Shown one piece after another: positions 5,478 to 54,140 of a stretch of 64,000 bases of DNA. Under the pieces are notes generated by a model. It saw nothing but the letters and a program-made list of their open reading frames with translations, ran no database searches and was not told where the DNA came from. This DNA comes from an uncultured Gammaproteobacteria bacterium (GTDB lineage Bacteria; Patescibacteriota; Patescibacteriia; Veblenbacterales; UBA10138), in the NCBI GenBank assembly GCA_964453605.1, contig CAYVOI010000001.1, positions 310,029-374,028 of the forward strand. The letters run 5' to 3'. Position 1 is the first letter of the stretch; the number at the start of each line of letters is the position of its first letter. The position numbers and the translations under genes are program-made.

Positions 5478-6409
5478 TCGACGTGGTGCTGTGGGTAGTC
5501 CTCACCTTAAGCGTGGTGGGGCTTATTGGCTTGGTGGTACGTAAGCTCCCCGTACTCCGGGTGATAGACACAGCTCAGCTCAGCTCCGTAAATCAGAGCC
5601 TGCTCAAGCTGAAGCTCCTCGAGCAGCGCCTGAGGCGTAAGGTGCAGAGCCTCGTGCAACGAGCGAGCCGTAACCTGCCTGCCGCTGGTAAACTTATCGC
5701 CCGCCGTATGGGTAGTGTGCATCAGGTTTTTCAGGACGTGACGAGTCGAATAGAGCGTAAGCTAGAGCGGCACACCGCTGCGTCTGCCAGCGCGGCCGAC
5801 CTCATGGCCCAGGCTGAGGCCGCGCTGAAGAGTGGTGGCTACGAGACGGCTGAGGCTAAGTACCTCGCCGTCCTACGTAGTGATGCTCATAGCCTAGGAG
5901 CTTATGAAGGCTTGGGAGCAGTGTACCTGGATGCACGAGAGTACGAGCAGGCCAGGGAAGTGTTTGAGTACCTGGTGGGGAGGGGCGTGGACAGTGCCCA
6001 CCTGGGGCTGGCGCGCGCTAGCCTAGGGCAAGGCCAGCTCGAGCTGGCGCGCGCCGAGTACCAGCAGGCGCTGGCCCACCTCACGTCACCTCAGCTCCTG
6101 ATAGAACTGGCGCAAGTGCTCCAAGAGCTCGGCAACTCCACTGAGGCCTTTACCTACCTCAAAGAGGCTCGAGCGCTAGAACCCAAGAACCCTAAGCTCC
6201 TTGACTTTTACATCGAACTCAGTATAGTAACTGGGCAACCAATTGAAGCCCAAAGCGCCCTGGACGCTCTCCGCGAGGTAAACCCCGAGAACCAGAAGAT
6301 CCCCGAGCTAGCTCAGGCCGTGCGTAAGCTGGCGGACAAGCTGAAGCTCAAGCGGCCGCGCGCGGCCACGAGCACAACCTTTGGTGTGCCGACCAGGCGC
6401 AAGGCTTAA
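5471..6409 (+). CDS. Membrane-anchored TPR-repeat protein
   Basis: N-terminal TM helix. Repeated TPR-like A/L/Y/E pattern (AEAKYLAVL..., EYQQALAHL...). Confidence 0.55.
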   Translation: MVIDVVLWVVLTLSVVGLIGLVVRKLPVLRVIDTAQLSSVNQSLLKLKLLEQRLRRKVQSLVQRASRNLPAAGKLIARRMGSVHQVFQDVTSRIERKLERHTAASASAADLMAQAEAALKSGGYETAEAKYLAVLRSDAHSLGAYEGLGAVYLDAREYEQAREVFEYLVGRGVDSAHLGLARASLGQGQLELARAEYQQALAHLTSPQLLIELAQVLQELGNSTEAFTYLKEARALEPKNPKLLDFYIELSIVTGQPIEAQSALDALREVNPENQKIPELAQAVRKLADKLKLKRPRAATSTTFGVPTRRKA

Positions 6410-6415
6410 CAGTTC

Positions 6416-6648
6416 CTAGGCCGTTGTAATCGGGCTACAGGCCCTCATACATCGGCATCGTTCGGAAGAAATGAACCTCGGTTCATTTCGTTCCTCACTC
6501 GCCGTTGTAGCTTCCGCCTCCACTCTCGGCTTCGGCGGACAAGCAGCTGGCACGTACTTTGATAACGTTCCTTCACTATGGGGTTGAAGGTTTTCTTGAC
6601 CCGCTGCCTTGTGCCGATGTAGCTGGAGCTGGCCCCACCCCTTCTCTT
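6416..6648 (+). repeat. Degenerate tRNA-Thr 5'-end fragments and hairpins upstream of tRNA-Thr(GGU)
   Basis: gccgttgta / gccgatgta (tRNA-Thr 5' acceptor plus D start) recurs at about 6421, 6511 and 6621. The 6421 copy closes a minihelix (gccgttg..catcggc). A 9-bp hairpin gaaatgaac-ctcg-gttcatttc is also present. Confidence 0.4.
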
Positions 6649-6792: not shown

Positions 6793-6836
6793 GGGGTAAG
6801 GAGTAGGTCGCCGGTTCAATTCCGGCCATCGGCTCC
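6793..6836 (+). repeat. Partial duplicate of tRNA-Thr(GGU) 3' portion (anticodon-loop 3' side to CCA), 1 mismatch
   Basis: ggtaaggagtaggtcgccggttcaattccggccatcggctcca is near-identical to 6682..6724. No matching 5' acceptor strand upstream. Confidence 0.75.
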
Positions 6837-6928
6837 AGGCAGCGGGCCAAGCCGGCCACGGGCCGTAAAGCCCTCGCGGGCCCACGGCCCTTTACGAGGC
6901 TCCACGTTCCTTTTACGTTTTTGGTCTC

Positions 6929-7087: not shown

Positions 7088-7123
7088 ACCTTCTTCGGGG
7101 TTCGAATCCTGCCCCACCCACCA
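7088..7123 (+). repeat. Partial duplicate of tRNA-Tyr 3' end (variable-arm remnant, T arm, acceptor, CCA)
   Basis: ggggttcgaatcctgccccacccacca is identical to the 3' 27 nt of the tRNA-Tyr at 6988..7014. Confidence 0.8.
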
Positions 7124-7191
7124 TTCGGCTCGCTTCGCTCGCTCATGGTAAACCAAGCGAGTCGAATGCCCCGAGCCGAGCCGAGGGGTTG
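7123..7191 (+). repeat. Hairpin plus conserved motif (gagtcgaatgcc ccgagccgagccgaggggttg) shared with the tRNA-Pro locus at 31928..32030
   Basis: 13-bp stem attcggctcgctt/aagcgagtcgaat with one G-U pair. The motif gagtcgaatgcc at 7159..7170 matches 31989..32000 exactly. Confidence 0.6.
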
Positions 7192-7206: not shown

Positions 7207-7407
7207 ATGGGTACACTATACTACGTTTATATGATGCGCTGCTCCGACGGTACGTTCTACGTCGGGATGACAGTCAACCTCGCGGCACGAGAAGCTCGTC
7301 ACATTCGAGGTGATGGCGCGAAGTTTACCAAGTCACATGGAGGAGAACGTATAGTATATCGAGAGCCACATGCTACGTATTTAACTGCACGGCGTAGAGA
7401 GATATAG
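7207..7407 (+). CDS. Stand-alone GIY-YIG nuclease domain protein (YhbQ/UPF0213-like)
   Basis: YYVYMMRCSDGTFYVGMTVNLAAREARH is a GIY-YIG motif; an ERIVYRE glutamate is present. About 66 aa from ATG 7207; the track ORF starts further upstream at an alternative codon. Confidence 0.7.
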   Translation: MGTLYYVYMMRCSDGTFYVGMTVNLAAREARHIRGDGAKFTKSHGGERIVYREPHATYLTARRREI

Positions 7408-7464
7408 ATAAAGAACTGGCGCCGCGAGAAGAAAGAACGTTTACTTTTAGGCCTTAAGCCGTAG

Positions 7465-7868: not shown

Positions 7869-7956
7869 TGTGTGAGTAGGAATCGAAGGGCGCGAGATAG
7901 GCGAGCGAGTTGGCTCGAGCTCGCCTGAGTGTAGCGCCCAGGCCCCGAGTCGGAGC

Positions 7957-7982
7957 GAGGGGGATTCCTACACCCCCTGCCA
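7957..7982 (+). repeat. Partial duplicate of tRNA-Trp 3' end (T-loop 3' side, acceptor, CCA) preceded by gagtcggagcgaggggg
   Basis: attcctacaccccctgcca is identical to 7813..7831. The preceding GGGGG can pair with the CCCCC of the acceptor strand to form a minihelix. Confidence 0.8.
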
Positions 7983-8091
7983 GGAAAAAACAGTTCCACC
8001 TTGGGACTGCTTTTTCCTGATGGCTAACGAGGGATCGAAGGTCATGCCTATAGGTATACACTCTTTCGTTTAGGAGTGCTAGACTAGAGCT

Positions 8092-30680: not shown

Positions 30681-30722
30681 AAATACCCTGGCCTAAGGCC
30701 AGGGTATTTGGTAGACCGGAGG

Positions 30723-31154
30723 TTACGGCGTGACGGTTACCTTGCCGAAGTGGCTGGCGTTGAGGTGGTCGTGGAATCCCCAGGCGCCGGACTTGGTGAA
30801 GGTAAATGTCCAGCTTTGCCCAGGTGCAATACCCCGCCGCGGGTCAAATTCCGGGTAGTTGGTGTGGGTGGGGTGAGGAGCTGAGGCGGGCCAGTGGGGG
30901 AGTGCGCCGTTGTTCATAAACCTCACCGTATCGCCAACGGTAATGCTAAGCTGCGATGGAGTGAAGCCATCGTCGGTCATGCTGATGACGACCGTTTTTG
31001 GCTGATGAGCGGGAGGGGTAACCGTTGCCGGAGCATTGGTGTTGGTGACTGGCGTGGTGGTAGGTGGTGTAGCTGCCGGTGTTCCGCTGCAGGCGGCACC
31101 AACCAAGCTTAGCGTAGCCAGAGCACCTACGGTTACTAGGGAACGTTTGAACAT
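30723..31154 (-). CDS. Cupredoxin-like lipoprotein without Cys ligand (EfeO/cupredoxin-like)
   Basis: Lipobox LVGAACS, Thr/Pro linker, His-rich beta-domain (HWPASAPHPTH, FHDHL...HFGKVTV). Confidence 0.45.
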   Translation of the reverse strand: MFKRSLVTVGALATLSLVGAACSGTPAATPPTTTPVTNTNAPATVTPPAHQPKTVVISMTDDGFTPSQLSITVGDTVRFMNNGALPHWPASAPHPTHTNYPEFDPRRGIAPGQSWTFTFTKSGAWGFHDHLNASHFGKVTVTP

Positions 31155-31276
31155 ACGTTTCTGTTTAAGGATTAGCTTACCCAGTGTACCCTACGATTCA
31201 TAGGTGAGGCAATTATGATTATCGTCGGGTGGGCGTTGCCAGAGCACCGAGCTTTGGCTATACTACGCCTGTTGTA

Positions 31277-31301
31277 CGGGGTATGGCCTAACCCCGACGC
31301 C
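31277..31301 (+). repeat. Internally deleted tRNA-Pro remnant (5' acceptor/D start cggggtatggcctaa joined to 3' acceptor ccccgacgcc)
   Basis: The first 15 nt are identical to tRNA-Pro 31670..31684. The tail matches the 3' acceptor strand. Lies upstream of the GIY-YIG gene. Confidence 0.6.
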
Positions 31302-31386
31302 TGGGCGCCGACGCTGCGGTCGGCGTTCCGCACCAGAAGCGTCGGAATCGGGGCTCCGACAGCGGAGCTCGTCGGAGTTGGTTTAT

Positions 31387-31647
31387 ATGATAGGATATTT
31401 GTATATTTTGAAGAGCTCGCAAACGGGACGTTATTACGTCGGTAGTACGAATGATTTACGTCGGCGACTGGTTCAACATCACCAGGGCCAGACTGCAACA
31501 ACTAAACGTCTCGGCAAGTTTGAGTTAGTTTTTTCTCAGGAGTTTAGTTCGCTAGCAGAAGCGAGGCTAGCCGAACGCCGAGTAAAGGAGTGGAAACGAC
31601 GAGATTTTATTGAAAAAATTATCCGTGATGGTAGAATTAAAACTTAA
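31387..31647 (+). CDS. Stand-alone GIY-YIG nuclease domain protein (YhbQ/UPF0213-like)
   Basis: GYLYILKSSQTGRYYVGSTNDLRRRLVQHHQG plus a downstream ...ERRVKEW glutamate. ATG at 31387; the track start at 31378 is TTG. Confidence 0.7.
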   Translation: MIGYLYILKSSQTGRYYVGSTNDLRRRLVQHHQGQTATTKRLGKFELVFSQEFSSLAEARLAERRVKEWKRRDFIEKIIRDGRIKT

Positions 31648-31669
31648 CATGTGATGTTGAGGTAATTAT

Positions 31670-31745
31670 CGGGGTATGGCCTAATTGGTAAGGCGCACGC
31701 TTCGGGTGCGTGAGATTCTGGGTTCGAGTCCCAGTACCCCGACCA
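31670..31745 (+). tRNA. tRNA-Pro (anticodon CGG)
   Basis: Acceptor cggggta/taccccg, D arm gcctaattggtaaggc, anticodon stem cacgc/gcgtg with loop ttCGGgt, T arm ctgggttcgagtcccag, CCA. Confidence 0.8.
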
Positions 31746-31784
31746 GACAAATGCGCCGGTAGCGTTACTGGCGCATTTGTCTGC
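31746..31784 (+). terminator. 12-bp-stem hairpin immediately 3' of tRNA-Pro
   Basis: gacaaatgcgcc-ggtagcgttact-ggcgcatttgtc. Confidence 0.55.
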
Positions 31785-31795
31785 TGATTGGTAGT

Positions 31796-31812
31796 ATGGG
31801 ACTCGAAGGGTA
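31796..31812 (+). repeat. Inverted partial copy of the tRNA-Pro T-arm (gggactcgaa = reverse complement of ttcgagtccc)
   Basis: Same arrangement as the inverted T-arm copy gtaggaatcgaa (about 7873) after tRNA-Trp. Confidence 0.5.
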
Positions 31813-31908
31813 CTTTAGAAACGTAAACAGTTTTACGTTGCTAAAGACCCAGGCTTTGGCGGAGCGGTGAGTGTTGTGCTGTAAGCACCACGAGCCGCGG
31901 GGGAGAAG

Positions 31909-31928
31909 GAGTCCCAGTACCCCGACCA
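31909..31928 (+). repeat. Partial duplicate of tRNA-Pro 3' end (copy 1), preceded by gagccgcggggg
   Basis: gagtcccagtaccccgacca is identical to 31726..31745. Confidence 0.8.
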
Positions 31929-32030
31929 TTCGACTCGGCCTTCGACAAGCTCAGGCCTTGCCCATGGTCTACGACCTATAGATGAGCCGAGTCGAATGCC
32001 CTGAGCGAACGAAGTGAGTCGAGGGGCGCT
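31928..32030 (+). repeat. Long hairpin (attcgactcggc...gccgagtcgaat) plus motif gagtcgaatgccctgagc...gagtcgagggg
   Basis: 12-bp stem with a loop of about 46 nt. gagtcgaatgcc at 31989..32000 matches 7159..7170. Confidence 0.6.
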
Positions 32031-32047
32031 GCCCAATACCCCGACCA
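32031..32047 (+). repeat. Diverged partial duplicate of tRNA-Pro 3' end (copy 2)
   Basis: gcccaataccccgacca versus tcccagtaccccgacca. Confidence 0.6.
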
Positions 32048-32081
32048 GCTCCCTATTTTTATTGGTTGTCCTGTATCCCTG

Positions 32082-32786
32082 ATGAATTCCGCTGATCCAA
32101 AAATGTCACAACCTAAGCACGTAGCGGTGATTGTTGATGGCAACCGCCGCTGGGCGAAAGCAAAAAATCTTCCGAGTTTGGAGGGGCACCGGGCTGGCTA
32201 TACAAGGGTAAAAGAGCTTGCCCGCTGGCTGTTTGCTCGTGGGGTTAAGTTTGCCAGCTTCTACCTGTTCTCGCGCGAGAACTGGAATCGTTCGGCTGAG
32301 GAGGTGGCCTACCTGTTCAATTTACTGGACGATGGGTTAGAGCGCGATGTTAAAGATTTTGTGCGCGATGGCATTAGATTGCGGTTTGCTGGTAGCCGCA
32401 CTGAGCTGAAACCCCGTACCCAGAAGCTCATGCGCCAGGCCGAAGCTGAGACCGCGGCTGGCACCAAGGGCACTATTGTGGCCTGCATCAACTACGGCGG
32501 GCAGCAGGAGATTGTAGAGGGCGTGCGCAAACTTGCGGCCGAGGGAACGAATTTAGCCGAGCTCACACCCGAAGGCCTCAAAGCCGGGCTCACGACGGCC
32601 CAGGTGCCGCCGGTTGACTTAATGATTCGCACCTCGGGTGAGCAACGTATTTCGAATTTTCTGTTGTGGGAGCTGGCGTATGCTGAGCTCTATTTTACCC
32701 CCGTGCTGTTTCCTGATTTTTCTGAGAAAAATTTAGACGAGGCTTTAGTTTGGTACCACAGCCGCGAGCGGCGCTTCGGCAGTTGA
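32082..32786 (+). CDS. uppS: Undecaprenyl-diphosphate synthase (cis-prenyltransferase)
   Basis: HVAVIVDGNRRWA, FSRENWNR, and C-terminal RFG. The true start may be ATG 32103. Confidence 0.85.
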   Translation: MNSADPKMSQPKHVAVIVDGNRRWAKAKNLPSLEGHRAGYTRVKELARWLFARGVKFASFYLFSRENWNRSAEEVAYLFNLLDDGLERDVKDFVRDGIRLRFAGSRTELKPRTQKLMRQAEAETAAGTKGTIVACINYGGQQEIVEGVRKLAAEGTNLAELTPEGLKAGLTTAQVPPVDLMIRTSGEQRISNFLLWELAYAELYFTPVLFPDFSEKNLDEALVWYHSRERRFGS

Positions 32787-52030: not shown

Positions 52031-53794
52031 TTAGCTCTGGCGAGTGGTAATTTCCTGCTCGAGCTTTTCCAAGAATGCTTTTTTGTTTAGCGCAAGCAAA
52101 TCTTTCTGCCCGCGCTGGCGCACGGCGAGCTGGCCAGAAGCAATTTCTTTATCGCCGATAACTAGGGCGTAGGGTATTTTCTCTTTTTCAGCTTGGCGGA
52201 TTTTCTTGCCAATGGTTTCGTTAGCATCGTCCACCTCCACGCGGACCATCTGGTCTCTAAGCTCTCCAGCAAACTTGTGGCAGAAGTCGCGATGTGCCTC
52301 GCCAACTGGTAGGAGCTTTACCTGCACAGGCGCCAGCCAGGTGGGGAAGTTGCCTGCGTAGTGCTCAATCAAGAAGCCAATAAACCGTTCATGGGTACCC
52401 AAAGGGGCCCGGTGGATAATGAGTGGGGTTTTGGCAGCACCGCCCTTGTCTACATACGTTAGGCCGAAGCGTTTGGGCTGAGCAAAGTCCACCTGGTTGG
52501 TAGCGAGCGTGAACTCGCGGCCAATTGAGCTCCATACCTGTACGTCGATTTTGGGACCATAGAAGGCAGCCTCGTTCGGCACCTCCACAAAGTTAATGCC
52601 GCTCTCTTGCATTACTTTGCGCACCATGTCCTCGGTCTGCTTCCAGAGCGCCGGTTCATCCACGTACTTTTTACCGAGCTCTTTAGGGTCATGAGTTGAA
52701 AAGCGCATGACGTACTTGGCTATGCCAAAGAGCTTAAAGTATTTTAGATATATTTCATTGACCGCCAGAAATTCGTTGGCAAATTGTTCAGGGGTTAAGT
52801 AGAGGTGGGCGTCGTTCATAGAGAGCTGTCGCGTGCGCATGAGGCCAAACAGCTCGCCCGATTTTTCGTAGCGGTAGCACGTGCCGTACTCGGCGAGCCT
52901 TAAGGGCAGGTCGCGGTAGCTCCTAGGCTCGGCGGCGTAAATTTGGTGGTGGTGAGGGCAGTTCATAGCCTTGAGGTAGTAGGTGGTTTTGGTGCCCTCT
53001 TCGTCCATCACCATAGGCGGGAACATGCTCTCGGCGTAGTAGGGGAGGTGGCCCGAGGTTTTGTACATGCTCTCTTTGGCAATGTGCGGTGTGCGCACGT
53101 GAAGGTAGCCGACCTTGAACTCGGTTTCCTGAGCTAGCTTTTCAAGCTCGTCGGCAATTACCGTGCCATTTGGTAACCACAGGGGCAGCCCTGGGCCCAC
53201 GTAGTCGGAAAAGGTGAAGAGCTTGAGCTCTTTCCCAAGTTTGCGGTGGTCGCGCTTTAGGCCCTCCTCGCGCTGGGTTAGGTACTCGTCGAGCTCTTTC
53301 TTACTATCAAACGCCAGACCATAGATGCGCGTTAACATTTTATTCTTCTCGTCGCCACGCCAGTAGGCGCCGGCGAGCCGGTCGAGTTTCCACGAGTTGC
53401 CCTGCGCATCACCCATGCTCTCAACGTGGCCGCCGCGACACAGGTCAGTAAACTCGCCCGAGGTGTAGCAGGTGAGCTGTTCGCCGTCTTTAGAAAATTC
53501 CTCAATCAGTTCGAGCTTGTAGGGGTTGGCCTTGAAGGTTTTTTTAAGCTCGGCAGCTGAGTGCTCGCTCCGGGCGAAGCCTTTCCAGGAGGGGGCGAGT
53601 TCGCGCATTTTTGACTCGATAGCAGCTAGGGCACTTTCGGTGATTTTCTCCTTACCGAAATCAAAGTCGTAGTAAAAGCCATCATCAACCGCTGGGCCGA
53701 TGGTGCGTAGGGCTTTGGGGTAAAGTTCGGCCACAGCAGCCGCCAGCAGGTGTGCTAGCGAGTGGCGTTTTGCTTCGATAGAGGATTGCGACAT
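52031..53794 (-). CDS. thrS: Threonyl-tRNA synthetase (lacks the N-terminal TGS/editing extension)
   Basis: Class II motifs (FRLAEYGTCYRYE, HRAPLGTHERFIGFLIEHYAGNFP) and the anticodon-binding domain. Confidence 0.9.
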   Translation of the reverse strand: MSQSSIEAKRHSLAHLLAAAVAELYPKALRTIGPAVDDGFYYDFDFGKEKITESALAAIESKMRELAPSWKGFARSEHSAAELKKTFKANPYKLELIEEFSKDGEQLTCYTSGEFTDLCRGGHVESMGDAQGNSWKLDRLAGAYWRGDEKNKMLTRIYGLAFDSKKELDEYLTQREEGLKRDHRKLGKELKLFTFSDYVGPGLPLWLPNGTVIADELEKLAQETEFKVGYLHVRTPHIAKESMYKTSGHLPYYAESMFPPMVMDEEGTKTTYYLKAMNCPHHHQIYAAEPRSYRDLPLRLAEYGTCYRYEKSGELFGLMRTRQLSMNDAHLYLTPEQFANEFLAVNEIYLKYFKLFGIAKYVMRFSTHDPKELGKKYVDEPALWKQTEDMVRKVMQESGINFVEVPNEAAFYGPKIDVQVWSSIGREFTLATNQVDFAQPKRFGLTYVDKGGAAKTPLIIHRAPLGTHERFIGFLIEHYAGNFPTWLAPVQVKLLPVGEAHRDFCHKFAGELRDQMVRVEVDDANETIGKKIRQAEKEKIPYALVIGDKEIASGQLAVRQRGQKDLLALNKKAFLEKLEQEITTRQS

Positions 53795-54020
53795 AGTGTT
53801 AGCTTAATTAACAAACAACCCAAACGATACGTGTCGTTTGGGTCCCGTAAAATTTGCTTTAGCTCACCACGGGAGGTTCCACCCATATTCCCCGTGGCCG
53901 TAAGGCTTTACGGGGCACTCTCAAGTTGTCTGTACGCTTAGTTCCGCCTAGACGGGAGCCCCTCGACAAGCTCGGGGCAAGCAGGTGGTAGCTGCCGCAA
54001 TCGCGTACAGGTGTAGCCTA
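53795..54020 (-). promoter_or_regulatory. T-box-like leader upstream of thrS
   Basis: On the - strand, AAUAUGGGUGGAACCUCCCGUGG (reverse complement of 53867..53891) resembles the T-box consensus AAUUAGGGUGGUACCGCGG. It is followed by a terminator hairpin cccaaacgacacgtatcgtttggg plus a U-run, immediately before the start codon. Confidence 0.5.
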
Positions 54021-54140
54021 CCAACGCTTGACAAGTTTGTCAATCTGGCGTACAGTGAATGGTTACTGTTGTTGAGTAGGTACATTACTAACCCCGAATA
54101 ACGGGGAAAATCATACACACATAAAAGGAAAGGAACACCC

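Follow-up and report, generated by a model that had tools for sequence, protein, structure and literature searches.

A GIY-YIG nuclease cassette inserted in the D-loop of a tRNA-Pro gene belongs to a large Patescibacteria family that sits against tRNA genes

How does a gene for a very small nuclease come to lie between two copies of the start of the same tRNA gene? In a 64,000-nucleotide stretch from an uncultured, ultra-small Patescibacteria bacterium (GenBank CAYVOI010000001.1, positions 310,029 to 374,028; hereafter the window), a GIY-YIG nuclease gene is preceded by a 5' fragment of tRNA-Pro(CGG), which we call the stub, and is followed by the intact tRNA-Pro(CGG) gene and by further copies of the tRNA 3' end. 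The locus is flanked by genes for a GH-like protein and a cupredoxin and by uppS and rarA, neighbours that assign the window to Patescibacteria. A first-pass annotation, made from the letters alone, had taken the arrangement for the classic footprint of a homing or integrating cassette. We compared it with loci, numbered with the prefix L, that were fetched from metagenome contigs or through named homologues.

Three closer relatives, L124, L125 and L126, were reached through the cupredoxin protein; their GH-like proteins are 85-92% identical to that of the window, compared with 52-64% in the other relatives. L125 and L126 stop short of the tRNA. L124 runs in the order cupredoxin, ...ggcTATACTacgcctgttgta, tRNA-Pro(CGG), 44 nt and uppS, and at its tRNA-Pro site there is no stub, no hairpins, no open reading frame (ORF) and no downstream units. 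The tRNA-Pro of the window is identical at 76 of 76 positions to that of this empty site and to that of a filled site, L120. The window equals the L124 empty site plus 393 bp (31292-31684, equivalently 31277-31669) and plus 302 bp (31746-32047); the 393 bp are flanked by a 15-nt direct repeat, and the 302 bp lie between the CCA of the tRNA and the uppS spacer. The tRNA-Pro(CGG) gene thus carries a 393-bp insertion after nucleotide 15, in the D-loop, and has been regenerated intact. The insert consists of a double hairpin, tRNA nucleotides 16-20, the nuclease gene, a 22-nt spacer and a new copy of tRNA nucleotides 1-15. As in homing systems, the gene in the insertion is missing from the cognate allele, which has the identical tRNA and the same leader. 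The features from the promoter to the intact tRNA are as follows.

31236..31264, + strand: ancestral tRNA-Pro promoter, TTGCCA-N17-TATACT (promoter scan, 10/12 matches)
31277..31291, + strand: 5' stub, exact copy of tRNA-Pro nucleotides 1-15 and left copy of the 15-nt direct repeat (repeat finder)
31292..31353, + strand: hairpin H1, outer stem CCCCGACGC / GCGTCGG..GGGG (predicted fold)
31354..31377, + strand: hairpin H2, CTCCGAC-10 nt-GTCGGAG (predicted fold and CCGAC..GTCGG pattern match)
31378..31382, + strand: stub continuation, tRNA nucleotides 16-20, ttggt (read from the sequence)
31387..31647, + strand: GIY-YIG nuclease gene, 86 aa, UPF0213 / Slx1-like (Pfam PF01541, E=2.4e-16)
31610..31637, + strand: promoter-like site in the 3' end of the ORF, TTGAAA-N16-TG-TAGAAT (consensus matching only)
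31648..31669, + strand: cassette-supplied spacer of 22 nt, the new tRNA 5' leader, absent from L124
31670..31745, + strand: intact tRNA-Pro(CGG) (ARAGORN; Rfam tRNA, 66 bits)

The stub occupies the place that the tRNA 5' end has in L124. That locus shares the -10 box of the window, and the 26 nt before its tRNA are those of window positions 31251-31276, just 5' of the stub; the ancestral promoter also aligns with TTGCCA/TTGTCA...TAGGCT/TACACT 5' of the intact tRNA-Pro in L007, L008 and L009. The L124 leader and the promoter alignment thus show that the stub is the original 5' end of the gene and that the cassette lies inside it. At the left junction the window reads tgttgta + CGGGGTATGGCCTAA + ccccgacg, and the empty allele reads tgttgta + CGGGGTATGGCCTAA + ttggtaagg. 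The right copy of CGGGGTATGGCCTAA, which forms the first 15 nt of the intact tRNA-Pro, is preceded by ggtaattat, the end of the spacer; in place of the spacer L124 has acgcctgttgta directly before its tRNA. Filled and empty alleles share the whole tRNA, of which the 5' leader alone differs, a point that bears on self-immunity. Stub, hairpins, nuclease ORF and tRNA now stand in series behind the native promoter, which reads into them.

tRNA-Pro(CGG) also lies upstream of uppS in L004, L005, L007, L008, L010, L011, L013 and the distant L024, whereas in L009 it stands on the strand opposite to uppS; its position immediately 5' of uppS is the ancestral arrangement. Among 80 fetched uppS loci, a GIY-YIG gene at this tRNA-Pro(CGG)-uppS site was found only in L024. 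We also observed that L124 resembles the window unevenly: its GH-like protein is in the 85-92% class, but its UppS is 71% identical, no closer than that of distant relatives, and the alignment of the two UppS proteins begins at M8. The tRNA-Pro may have served as a recombination breakpoint between these discordant flanks.

The piece upstream of the nuclease is not a tRNA with its middle deleted, as had first been supposed, but tRNA nucleotides 1-20 interrupted after nucleotide 15 by an 86-nt double hairpin. The 15-nt copy at 31277-31291 is exact, as claimed. The letters ccccgacgcc that follow it, which the first-pass annotation joined to the 3' acceptor strand, are instead the first arm of a conserved double hairpin (CCGAC...GTCGG); the same hairpin follows Arg, Asp, Phe, Val and Asn stubs, whose acceptor strands differ, and the likeness of ccccgac to the Pro acceptor end is a chance match of the hairpin consensus. 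This consensus is (T/C)CCGA(C/T)G...CGTCGG(A/G) for H1 and nnCCGAC...GTCGGnn for H2. Matches to CCGAC..GTCGG lie at 31294-31345, inside H1. In the window, H1 holds a nested insertion of about 48 nt with an extra CCGAC hairpin; L120, the closest relative, has a short H1, ccccgacgccggggtcgggg, from which the nested piece is absent. H2 is better conserved than the gene it precedes: over about 35 nt that span H2 and ttggt, the window matches L120 at 100% identity, and over the ORF at only about 75%. Over 20 cassettes the H2 pairs comprise 132 Watson-Crick and 8 G-U pairs with no mismatch, and the outer pairs covary around an invariant CCGAC core. The 3' arm of H2 holds a GGAG Shine-Dalgarno-like motif 9 nt before the ATG. 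In the 64-kb window the CCGAC..GTCGG pattern has 6 matches against 1.5 expected, 3 of the 6 inside this cassette; in about 1 Mb searched, CCGAC-type doublets are confined to GIY-YIG loci with one exception (L040).

As a separate observation, positions 31329-31342 in the nested insertion of H1 are complementary at 13 of 14 positions to the tRNA-Pro anticodon arm (31697-31710); the sole mismatch falls in the anticodon, and the stretch is absent from L120. Rfam searches returned tRNAs only, both in 30700-32500 at E<=5 and across the window as a whole with the gathering score, which rules out known introns, ribozymes and T-box leaders in 30700-32500. An intron, whether of group I as in Patescibacteria (PMC13011429) or archaeal-type, was rejected: a contiguous complete tRNA follows, and there is no Rfam intron match at E<=5. 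An HDV-like theta ribozyme after the CCA, a nested double pseudoknot that directly adjoins the tRNA 3' end (PMC10879173), was likewise rejected, with no Rfam ribozyme match in 30700-32500 at E<=5 and with predicted folds that are plain hairpins and a three-way junction.

The nuclease ORF (31387-31647) withstood a check by hidden Markov model, the match to PF01541 listed above. A sequence search of the Protein Data Bank (PDB) gave 1zg2 (UPF0213, BH0048) at E=7e-14 and SLX1 next. With the AlphaFold2 model (pLDDT 85.4), Foldseek again placed 1zg2 first and then the Slx1 nuclease domain, at a root-mean-square deviation of 2.0-2.3 A over 66-70 residues; UvrC and I-TevI rank behind these structures both by sequence and by predicted structure. 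The model is a three-stranded sheet flanked by helices, closest to UPF0213/Slx1. Residues Y6, Y17, G19, R27, H31 and E63 are invariant among 26 homologues, the active-site Arg and Glu included. The protein amounts to the whole catalytic core plus one C-terminal helix, and there is no added DNA-binding domain. Orthologous Pro-GGG cassettes give a ratio of nonsynonymous to synonymous substitution rates (dN/dS) of 0.11-0.25 at dS about 0.9; the nuclease is under purifying selection. Because the catalytic residues are invariant, the dN/dS is low and the predicted fold is Slx1/UPF0213-like, the nuclease is likely to be active and functional.

The base composition of the gene looks like a foreign signature. 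Its G+C content at third codon positions is 0.36, against 0.62-0.64 in neighbouring genes of the window, and of 16 loci compared, 15 have an ORF with a higher A+T content than the locus around it. A protein search matched 4,835 clusters of the UPF0213 family at E<=1e-3, and for the clade in question 279 clusters (50% identity) at E<=1e-10. The closest cassette, L120, has a nuclease 78% identical in amino acids and an identical tRNA; across the nuclease clades the tRNA type is shared at shallow depth and switched deeper in the tree. A scan of viral contigs found relatives of the nuclease at no more than 39% identity, and a phage origin was rejected on the ground that viral contigs hold distant relatives only. 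A role in a defence system was rejected too, PADLOC and PHROGs giving only weak 'homing endonuclease' matches. Some family members (P0111, P0116, P0168) have 166-214 aa with two GIY-YIG stretches, and many are longer by 20-60 residues at the N terminus, perhaps because the predicted gene extends across stub and hairpins.

We then asked whether the association with a tRNA gene is peculiar to this locus. A same-strand tRNA lies 2-230 nt after the GIY-YIG ORF in 13 of 13 testable metagenome loci, and loci reached through named homologues extend the series to tRNAs for Arg, Asn, Phe, Gln, Ile, Val and Pro. Overall, the gene is tRNA-adjacent in 21 of 21 distinct testable loci, including L024 and a second copy in the window, whereas the background chance that any gene abuts a tRNA is a few per cent. 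Twelve anticodons are represented: Pro-CGG, Pro-GGG, Arg-GCG, Asp-GTC, Val-TAC, Val-CAC, Met-CAT, Asn-GTT, Phe-GAA, Gln-TTG, Ile-GAT and Thr-TGT. The cassette is one of a large Patescibacteria family, whose sampled members always adjoin a tRNA gene and between them use tRNAs of many identities. The worry attached to the first-pass annotation, that the upstream remnant might be a chance match conserved in no relative and that GIY-YIG homologues might never be tRNA-adjacent, is answered by the same counts and by the recurrence of the remnant. Sixteen loci share one anatomy: a 10-17-nt exact or near-exact copy of the tRNA 5' end, hairpins, the rest of the D-loop, the ATG of the nuclease, and a complete tRNA -10 to +30 nt after the ORF. 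A D-loop remainder stands behind the hairpins in each of the other loci as well and fits the local tRNA (TTGGCTA for Pro-GGG, CTGGATA for Arg, CAGTTGGTTAG for Asp and TTGGTAGAG for Phe). The architecture was seen in dozens of unrelated samples (JGI, ENA, Logan). The Asn-tRNA locus also shows the group I-type intron position reported for the phylum (PMC13011429).

At the same tRNA-Pro(CGG)-uppS site as in the window, L024 carries a GIY-YIG protein of 30% identity, a 17-nt stub and another class of hairpin, and is an independent insertion at one and the same site. The hairpin class goes with the nuclease clade: the main clade has CCGAC, L024 has CCGCC, the second copy of the window has TTCGRCTCG/CCCYGAG, and L104 has a perfect palindrome. 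Copies also differ in their state. The L120 stub has one mismatch; L096 has lost its start codon and its stub is decayed; L091 holds two units in series, and L092 looks like a circular permutation of L090. Hairpins nested in hairpin loops occur in L087, L099 and L101, as in H1 of the window compared with L120. Decayed, ORF-less and stacked copies may be read as the remains of a life cycle.

Variants of the family are worth recording in their own right. In L097, L099, L121 and L094 the stop codon of the nuclease is the TAG inside the tRNA 5' end (GTAG, nucleotides 7-10), and RNase P processing would cut it off the mRNA. In L094 (2850-3085) a second tRNA-Val-like copy follows directly after the intact tRNA-Val(TAC), itself 3' of the GIY-YIG gene, and this copy has near-identical CCGAC double hairpins in its D-loop, anticodon loop and T-loop. 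The tRNA-Gln(TTG) variant of L104-L107 (about 1420-1950) has a stub with a perfect 18-nt palindrome and no double hairpin; the stub does not correspond to the intact tRNA, its match being another full-length tRNA-Gln copy farther downstream. That copy carries the palindrome too, in its D-loop, and its anticodon stem has decayed.

The 3' end of the nuclease gene may serve a second purpose. Promoter-like sites similar to that at 31610-31637 lie in the same codons (IEK...DGxI) of most other cassettes, including L084-L088, L090, L096, L097 and L101. These conserved C-terminal codons spell a sigma-70-like -35 and an extended -10 box, 8-37 nt before the tRNA, so that the nuclease tail may double as a putative tRNA promoter.

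ARAGORN and Rfam agree on the position given earlier for the intact tRNA-Pro, 31670-31745; the gap from the nuclease stop is 22 nt, not 23. Beyond the tRNA, the features up to uppS are as follows.

31744..31783, + strand: terminator-like hairpin with 18-nt arms, 94% complementary, at the start of unit 1 (31746-31928)
31794..31928, + strand: structured tRNA-linked 3' element, folding as a three-way junction (z=-5.3)
31797-31807, + strand: left arm of the element, 11-nt reverse complement of T-loop and T-stem (repeat finder)
31808-31850 and 31854-31908, + strand: hairpins H1 and H2 of the element, separated by AGG (predicted fold)
31909-31928, + strand: exact copy of tRNA nucleotides 57-76, including CCA (repeat finder)
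31929..32047, + strand: older downstream unit 2, hairpins and a diverged 3' copy
31929-31996, + strand: unit 2 hairpin TTCGACTCGGC..GCCGAGTCGAA, 13-bp stem with a 46-nt loop, spanning 31927-31998 in the repeat finder
31999-32026, + strand: unit 2 hairpin CCCTGAG..CGAGGGG (pattern match)
32028-32047, + strand: diverged copy of the tRNA 3' end, 80% identity (repeat finder)
32103..32786, + strand: uppS (Pfam Prenyltransf), conserved right-hand neighbour, outside the element

Most of these pieces had been noticed, some with other bounds. The inverted T-arm copy (11 nt) and the exact 20-nt copy at 31909-31928 stand; the hairpin after the tRNA exists with 18-nt arms at 94% complementarity instead of 12 bp, the hairpin with the 46-nt loop has a stem of 13 bp and not 12, and the diverged second copy begins at 32028, not at 32031. 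Their assignment to the footprint of the nuclease cassette has to be given up. Elements homologous to the first occur after tRNA-Pro in L007-L010, and probably L005, without a GIY-YIG gene, and also after the tRNA-Trp of the window; the second is an older unit of like kind. Because relatives that lack a GIY-YIG gene at this tRNA carry such units as well, they are separate from the nuclease cassette. They are absent from L124, L004, L011 and L013.

The 302 bp consist of two non-coding units, one stacked behind the other, which form a second kind and mirror the cassette. In the predicted fold of unit 1, the three-way junction is followed by a single-stranded acceptor strand. Each 3' element matches its own tRNA. 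In six elements taken together, the closing helix is made up of 43 Watson-Crick and 4 G-U pairs with a single mismatch, and between the window and L008 hairpin H1 of the element shows 4 compensatory pairs and none broken. The pattern GAAGGG..CCCAGG gave six tRNA-linked matches and is unspecific beyond those. A hairpin stands at the position equivalent to 31744-31783 in L008, L009 and after the window tRNA-Trp. In L010 and L044 the 3' copy has CCA although the tRNA gene itself has none. The unit with the exact copy is probably the newer and that with the 80% copy the older, as would be expected of serial insertion at the T-loop; the 3' end with which the gene began would then be the outermost, oldest copy. 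Cassette and downstream units are built alike, each with a partial tRNA copy that runs from one end to just past one arm and with hairpins in the loop of that arm. A classical integrated element in L007/L008 was considered and rejected, as a third 3' copy bracketing the 3-kb tRNA-Pro-uppS stretch was not found there. Exactly between the tRNA-Pro of L005 and its 3' copy there is a run of N (5883-5983), which is either masked sequence or a gap that the repeat left in the scaffold.

The first-pass annotation had also raised the possibility of 3' copies downstream of other tRNA genes, and these exist within the window at tRNA-Trp, tRNA-Tyr and tRNA-Thr(GGT). After tRNA-Trp (7876-7982) lie a hairpin and a structured element of the tRNA-Pro type that ends in an exact 20-nt 3' copy, and 3' of this element an isolated GGGATCGAAGG motif follows a second hairpin (8031-8041). 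Around tRNA-Thr(GGT) there are a 12-nt 5' stub, a TCCGCC..GGCGGA hairpin and a second, degenerate 5' copy without an ORF (6501-6539, 6613-6632), and 3' of it a 43-nt copy, 42/43 identical, from anticodon nucleotide 34 to CCA (6795-6837). The second GIY-YIG gene of the window (7207-7464), distantly related to the first, has 86 codons with an in-frame TAG at codon 67 and ends where tRNA-Thr(TGT) starts (7465); no stub of tRNA-Thr(TGT) was found. A hairpin pair at 7124-7188 precedes this gene, directly after a 25-nt copy of the tRNA-Tyr 3' end (7099-7123). The unit 2 hairpin motifs recur on the + strand of the window at tRNA-linked sites only, namely in this pair and at 7943-7962, inside the tRNA-Trp element. 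A lone H2-type match of the unit 2 motif lies on the minus strand at 53959-53977. The minus-strand region 53800-54040 is a long intergenic leader 5' of a gene for 587 aa (52031-53794). Its TTGACA..TAGGCT resembles a promoter, and it also has several hairpins and a GGGTGGAACC motif. A T-box leader near 53.9 kb was suspected from its look and dropped, as Rfam gave no match.

What, then, put the cassette into the D-loop? The reading we favour, and which we would credit about as readily as doubt, is a selfish endonuclease cassette that targets tRNA genes, spreads in a homing-like manner and leaves its target intact. The nuclease would break cassette-free tRNA genes in or near the D-loop, its target probably being folded or branched DNA and not a long sequence, as for Slx1. 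Repair from a cassette-bearing copy would install the cassette, with the stub and the intact tRNA acting as homology arms. H2 would sequester the GGAG ribosome-binding site and so keep nuclease expression low, and the promoter-like site at 31610-31637 may help to keep the tRNA expressed.

Several points weigh against this reading. The break itself, cleavage activity and target site included, is inferred. The restored tRNA is identical, so a target within the tRNA would persist, and simple homing does not account for self-immunity. The 86-aa core lacks the specificity domain of I-TevI or Seg and is more Slx1-like than I-TevI-like. The orthologous Pro(GGG) cassettes have reached dS about 0.9, and still each stub is identical to its own tRNA, although these tRNAs differ; had the stub been a passive scar, decay would be expected, which implies either continual mobility or a functional stub. 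The conserved stems, tolerating only G-U, point to a role as RNA or as sense-strand DNA, for which this reading has no need. The piece of tRNA nucleotides 16-20 after the hairpins is unexplained by a simple target-site duplication. Of the classic homing footprint, then, the insertion with its empty allele stands; homing as such is not established for an 86-aa core without a DNA-binding domain that regenerates an identical tRNA.

Among the alternatives, the one that survives best makes the hairpin doublet the mobile unit and the GIY-YIG protein its dedicated nuclease, somewhat as in REPIN/RAYT; we regard it as possible but improbable. Modules would insert into the loops of folded DNA, tRNA genes would be a niche by virtue of their D, anticodon and T loops, the ORF cassette would be the autonomous form, and the downstream units and hairpin-riddled tRNA copies its non-autonomous relatives. 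Such a scheme would fit the same-class hairpins in all three loops of the second tRNA-Val copy in L094, the hairpins at anticodon and T-loop positions in L108, and the 3' copy of tRNA-Thr(GGT) in the window, which begins exactly at the anticodon. It would also accommodate the hairpins nested in hairpin loops, the near-confinement of CCGAC doublets to GIY-YIG loci, the structure-specific Slx1 nucleases as the closest solved relatives after UPF0213, and the variation of hairpin class with nuclease clade, though the last could reflect mere joint inheritance. However, we know of no GIY-YIG enzyme that transposes DNA, the CCGAC hairpins exceed chance at one locus only in the 64-kb window and form no dispersed family there, and the downstream elements use other hairpins and occur in loci without a nearby nuclease gene.

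More doubtful is a cassette that moves without its nuclease, the GIY-YIG gene being cargo or having an addiction or repair function. The route would be Campbell-type recombination of a small circle through 15-17 nt of tRNA identity, or DNA uptake followed by homologous recombination at the tRNA. A stretch of 15-17 nt is too short for efficient RecA recombination, and the insert has no recombinase gene, the nuclease being its only ORF; that the nuclease is under purifying selection and is never missing from the 5' type suggests that it matters to the element. Still, the anatomy is what a single crossover would leave between a tRNA gene and a circle carrying a hairpin-interrupted tRNA(1-20), L090/L092 look circularly permuted, L091 looks like two units in series, and the 3' copies with CCA next to CCA-less tRNA genes in L010 and L044 fit a 3' end supplied by the element. 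Direct repeats of tRNA ends are a hallmark of integrative elements, and in the archaeon Caldiarchaeum a 5' tRNA-Thr fragment lies 5' of a 1.8-kb recombinase element that is followed by the intact tRNA (PMC3293823).

We consider it unlikely that the locus is a stable operon useful to the host, in which the stub-hairpin leader and the downstream element are functional RNAs that control expression or processing of tRNA and nuclease, and in which the nuclease serves the maintenance of tRNA genes or RNA. The cassette is absent from L124, a close relative with the identical tRNA, and from most relatives at this locus; its composition is atypical for the host, decayed copies exist, independent insertions occur at one site, and no Rfam family matches. 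What such an operon would explain is the persistence of the parts: dN/dS of 0.11-0.25 over dS about 0.9, stubs and 3' copies that remain identical to their own tRNA while the lineages diverge, and compensatory and G-U changes in helices on the sense strand. The ribosome-binding site within H2, the promoter-like site in the ORF 3' end and the ORF stop codon inside the tRNA at some loci would suit regulation, and roles with RNA have been hinted at by a report of an Slx1-like domain fused to TrmH, a methylase of the tRNA D-loop (PMC1564403).

Very unlikely, in our judgement, is that the stub with its hairpins, and in mirror image the downstream element, are working guide modules and not scars. 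A guide of 10-20 nt derived from the flank, on a clade-specific hairpin scaffold, would work as RNA or as folded sense-strand DNA and direct the nuclease to cassette-free tRNA genes, a guide- or structure-programmed GIY-YIG homing whose logic would resemble that of TnpB/IscB OMEGA. The tracking of each tRNA by its own stub or 3' copy, stems that admit only G-U and the position of the stub 3' of a promoter are consistent with guides but not diagnostic of them.

Chance repeats or an assembly artefact can be dismissed: short contigs and repeats can mislead metagenome assemblers, and L005 does have its run of N between tRNA and 3' copy, but the 15-mer (<=2 mismatches) occurs twice in 64 kb against 0.10 expected from shuffled windows and the 20-mer 3'-end copy (<=3 mismatches) twice against 0.00, an identical 1,050 bp was recovered in a separately assembled Logan contig, and the architecture recurs in unrelated JGI, ENA and Logan samples, so this explanation is refuted.

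The selfish-cassette reading can be set beside known systems. Mobile endonuclease ORFs of fungal mitochondria, such as a GIY-YIG ORF at atp6, insert near the end of a gene and bring a replacement end. As there, the insert brings a duplicate end, which keeps the host gene working, and the displaced segment persists as a remnant; the fungal ORFs use the 3' ends of protein genes and a new copy that differs in sequence, whereas the cassette uses a tRNA 5' end, an identical copy and a remnant that always has the hairpin doublet. In phages, hairpin control of translation occurs for endonuclease genes, and the Seg proteins, of about 200 aa, include a DNA-binding domain and do not leave a duplicated piece of the target behind. 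Unlike Seg, the cassette has an 86-aa Slx1-like core, lies inside the tRNA gene, has a constant 5' stub and double hairpin, and is found in bacterial hosts. The likeness is that the Seg GIY-YIG endonucleases of T4-like phages are optional insertions among or against tRNA genes and that their inheritance is attributed to breaks made in alleles without the gene. SegB is a site-specific endonuclease that sits between genes of the T4 tRNA gene cluster (PMC2330249).

With tRNA-targeting integrative elements the cassette shares direct repeats of tRNA ends at its flanks, a restored tRNA and insertion points in tRNA-gene loops: the 15-nt 5' repeat flanks the cassette and 20-nt 3' repeats flank the downstream units. 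The latter duplicate the segment from T-loop to CCA, as classical integrative elements do; the nuclease cassette uses the tRNA 5' end and D-loop, which is unusual in bacteria. Neither has an integrase, the only family-matched ORF being the GIY-YIG gene and the downstream units being non-coding, and at 119-393 bp they are far from the kilobases of integrative elements. REP/REPIN palindromes associate with RAYT, a Y1/HUH transposase, in intergenic space. Like these and like the reported mobile GC-cluster hairpins of yeast mitochondria (PMC4478555), the cassettes have nested palindromic modules, sequence classes and one small flanked gene of nuclease type; they differ from REPIN-RAYT in having a GIY-YIG enzyme and no Y1/HUH protein, in their low copy number in the window and in their niche in tRNA-gene loops. 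UPF0213 / COG2827 (BH0048, PDB 1zg2) and the eukaryotic Slx1 domain are the best sequence and structure matches and have the same catalytic residues; Slx1 needs Slx4 and acts in repair, and the papers retrieved on UPF0213 give no tRNA linkage or function. A full-text literature search returned no description of tRNA-linked UPF0213 cassettes or of tRNA-loop hairpins in this phylum. None of the compared systems joins a minimal Slx1-like nuclease, a D-loop insertion with 5' duplication and a constant hairpin doublet.

If the selfish-cassette reading is right, it would provide the first biological role for a clade of UPF0213, a widespread group of tiny GIY-YIG proteins, and would make the tRNA genes of reduced Patescibacteria genomes hot spots for dedicated selfish elements, which would spare an essential target by rebuilding the tRNA gene from either end. 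It would account for the partial copies and hairpins around these tRNA genes, remnants that can mislead annotation and break assemblies, and the stacked remnants would be a readable record of successive insertions. The nuclease would then be a natural minimal enzyme that may read folded DNA or short matching segments, and as such of interest for enzyme engineering.

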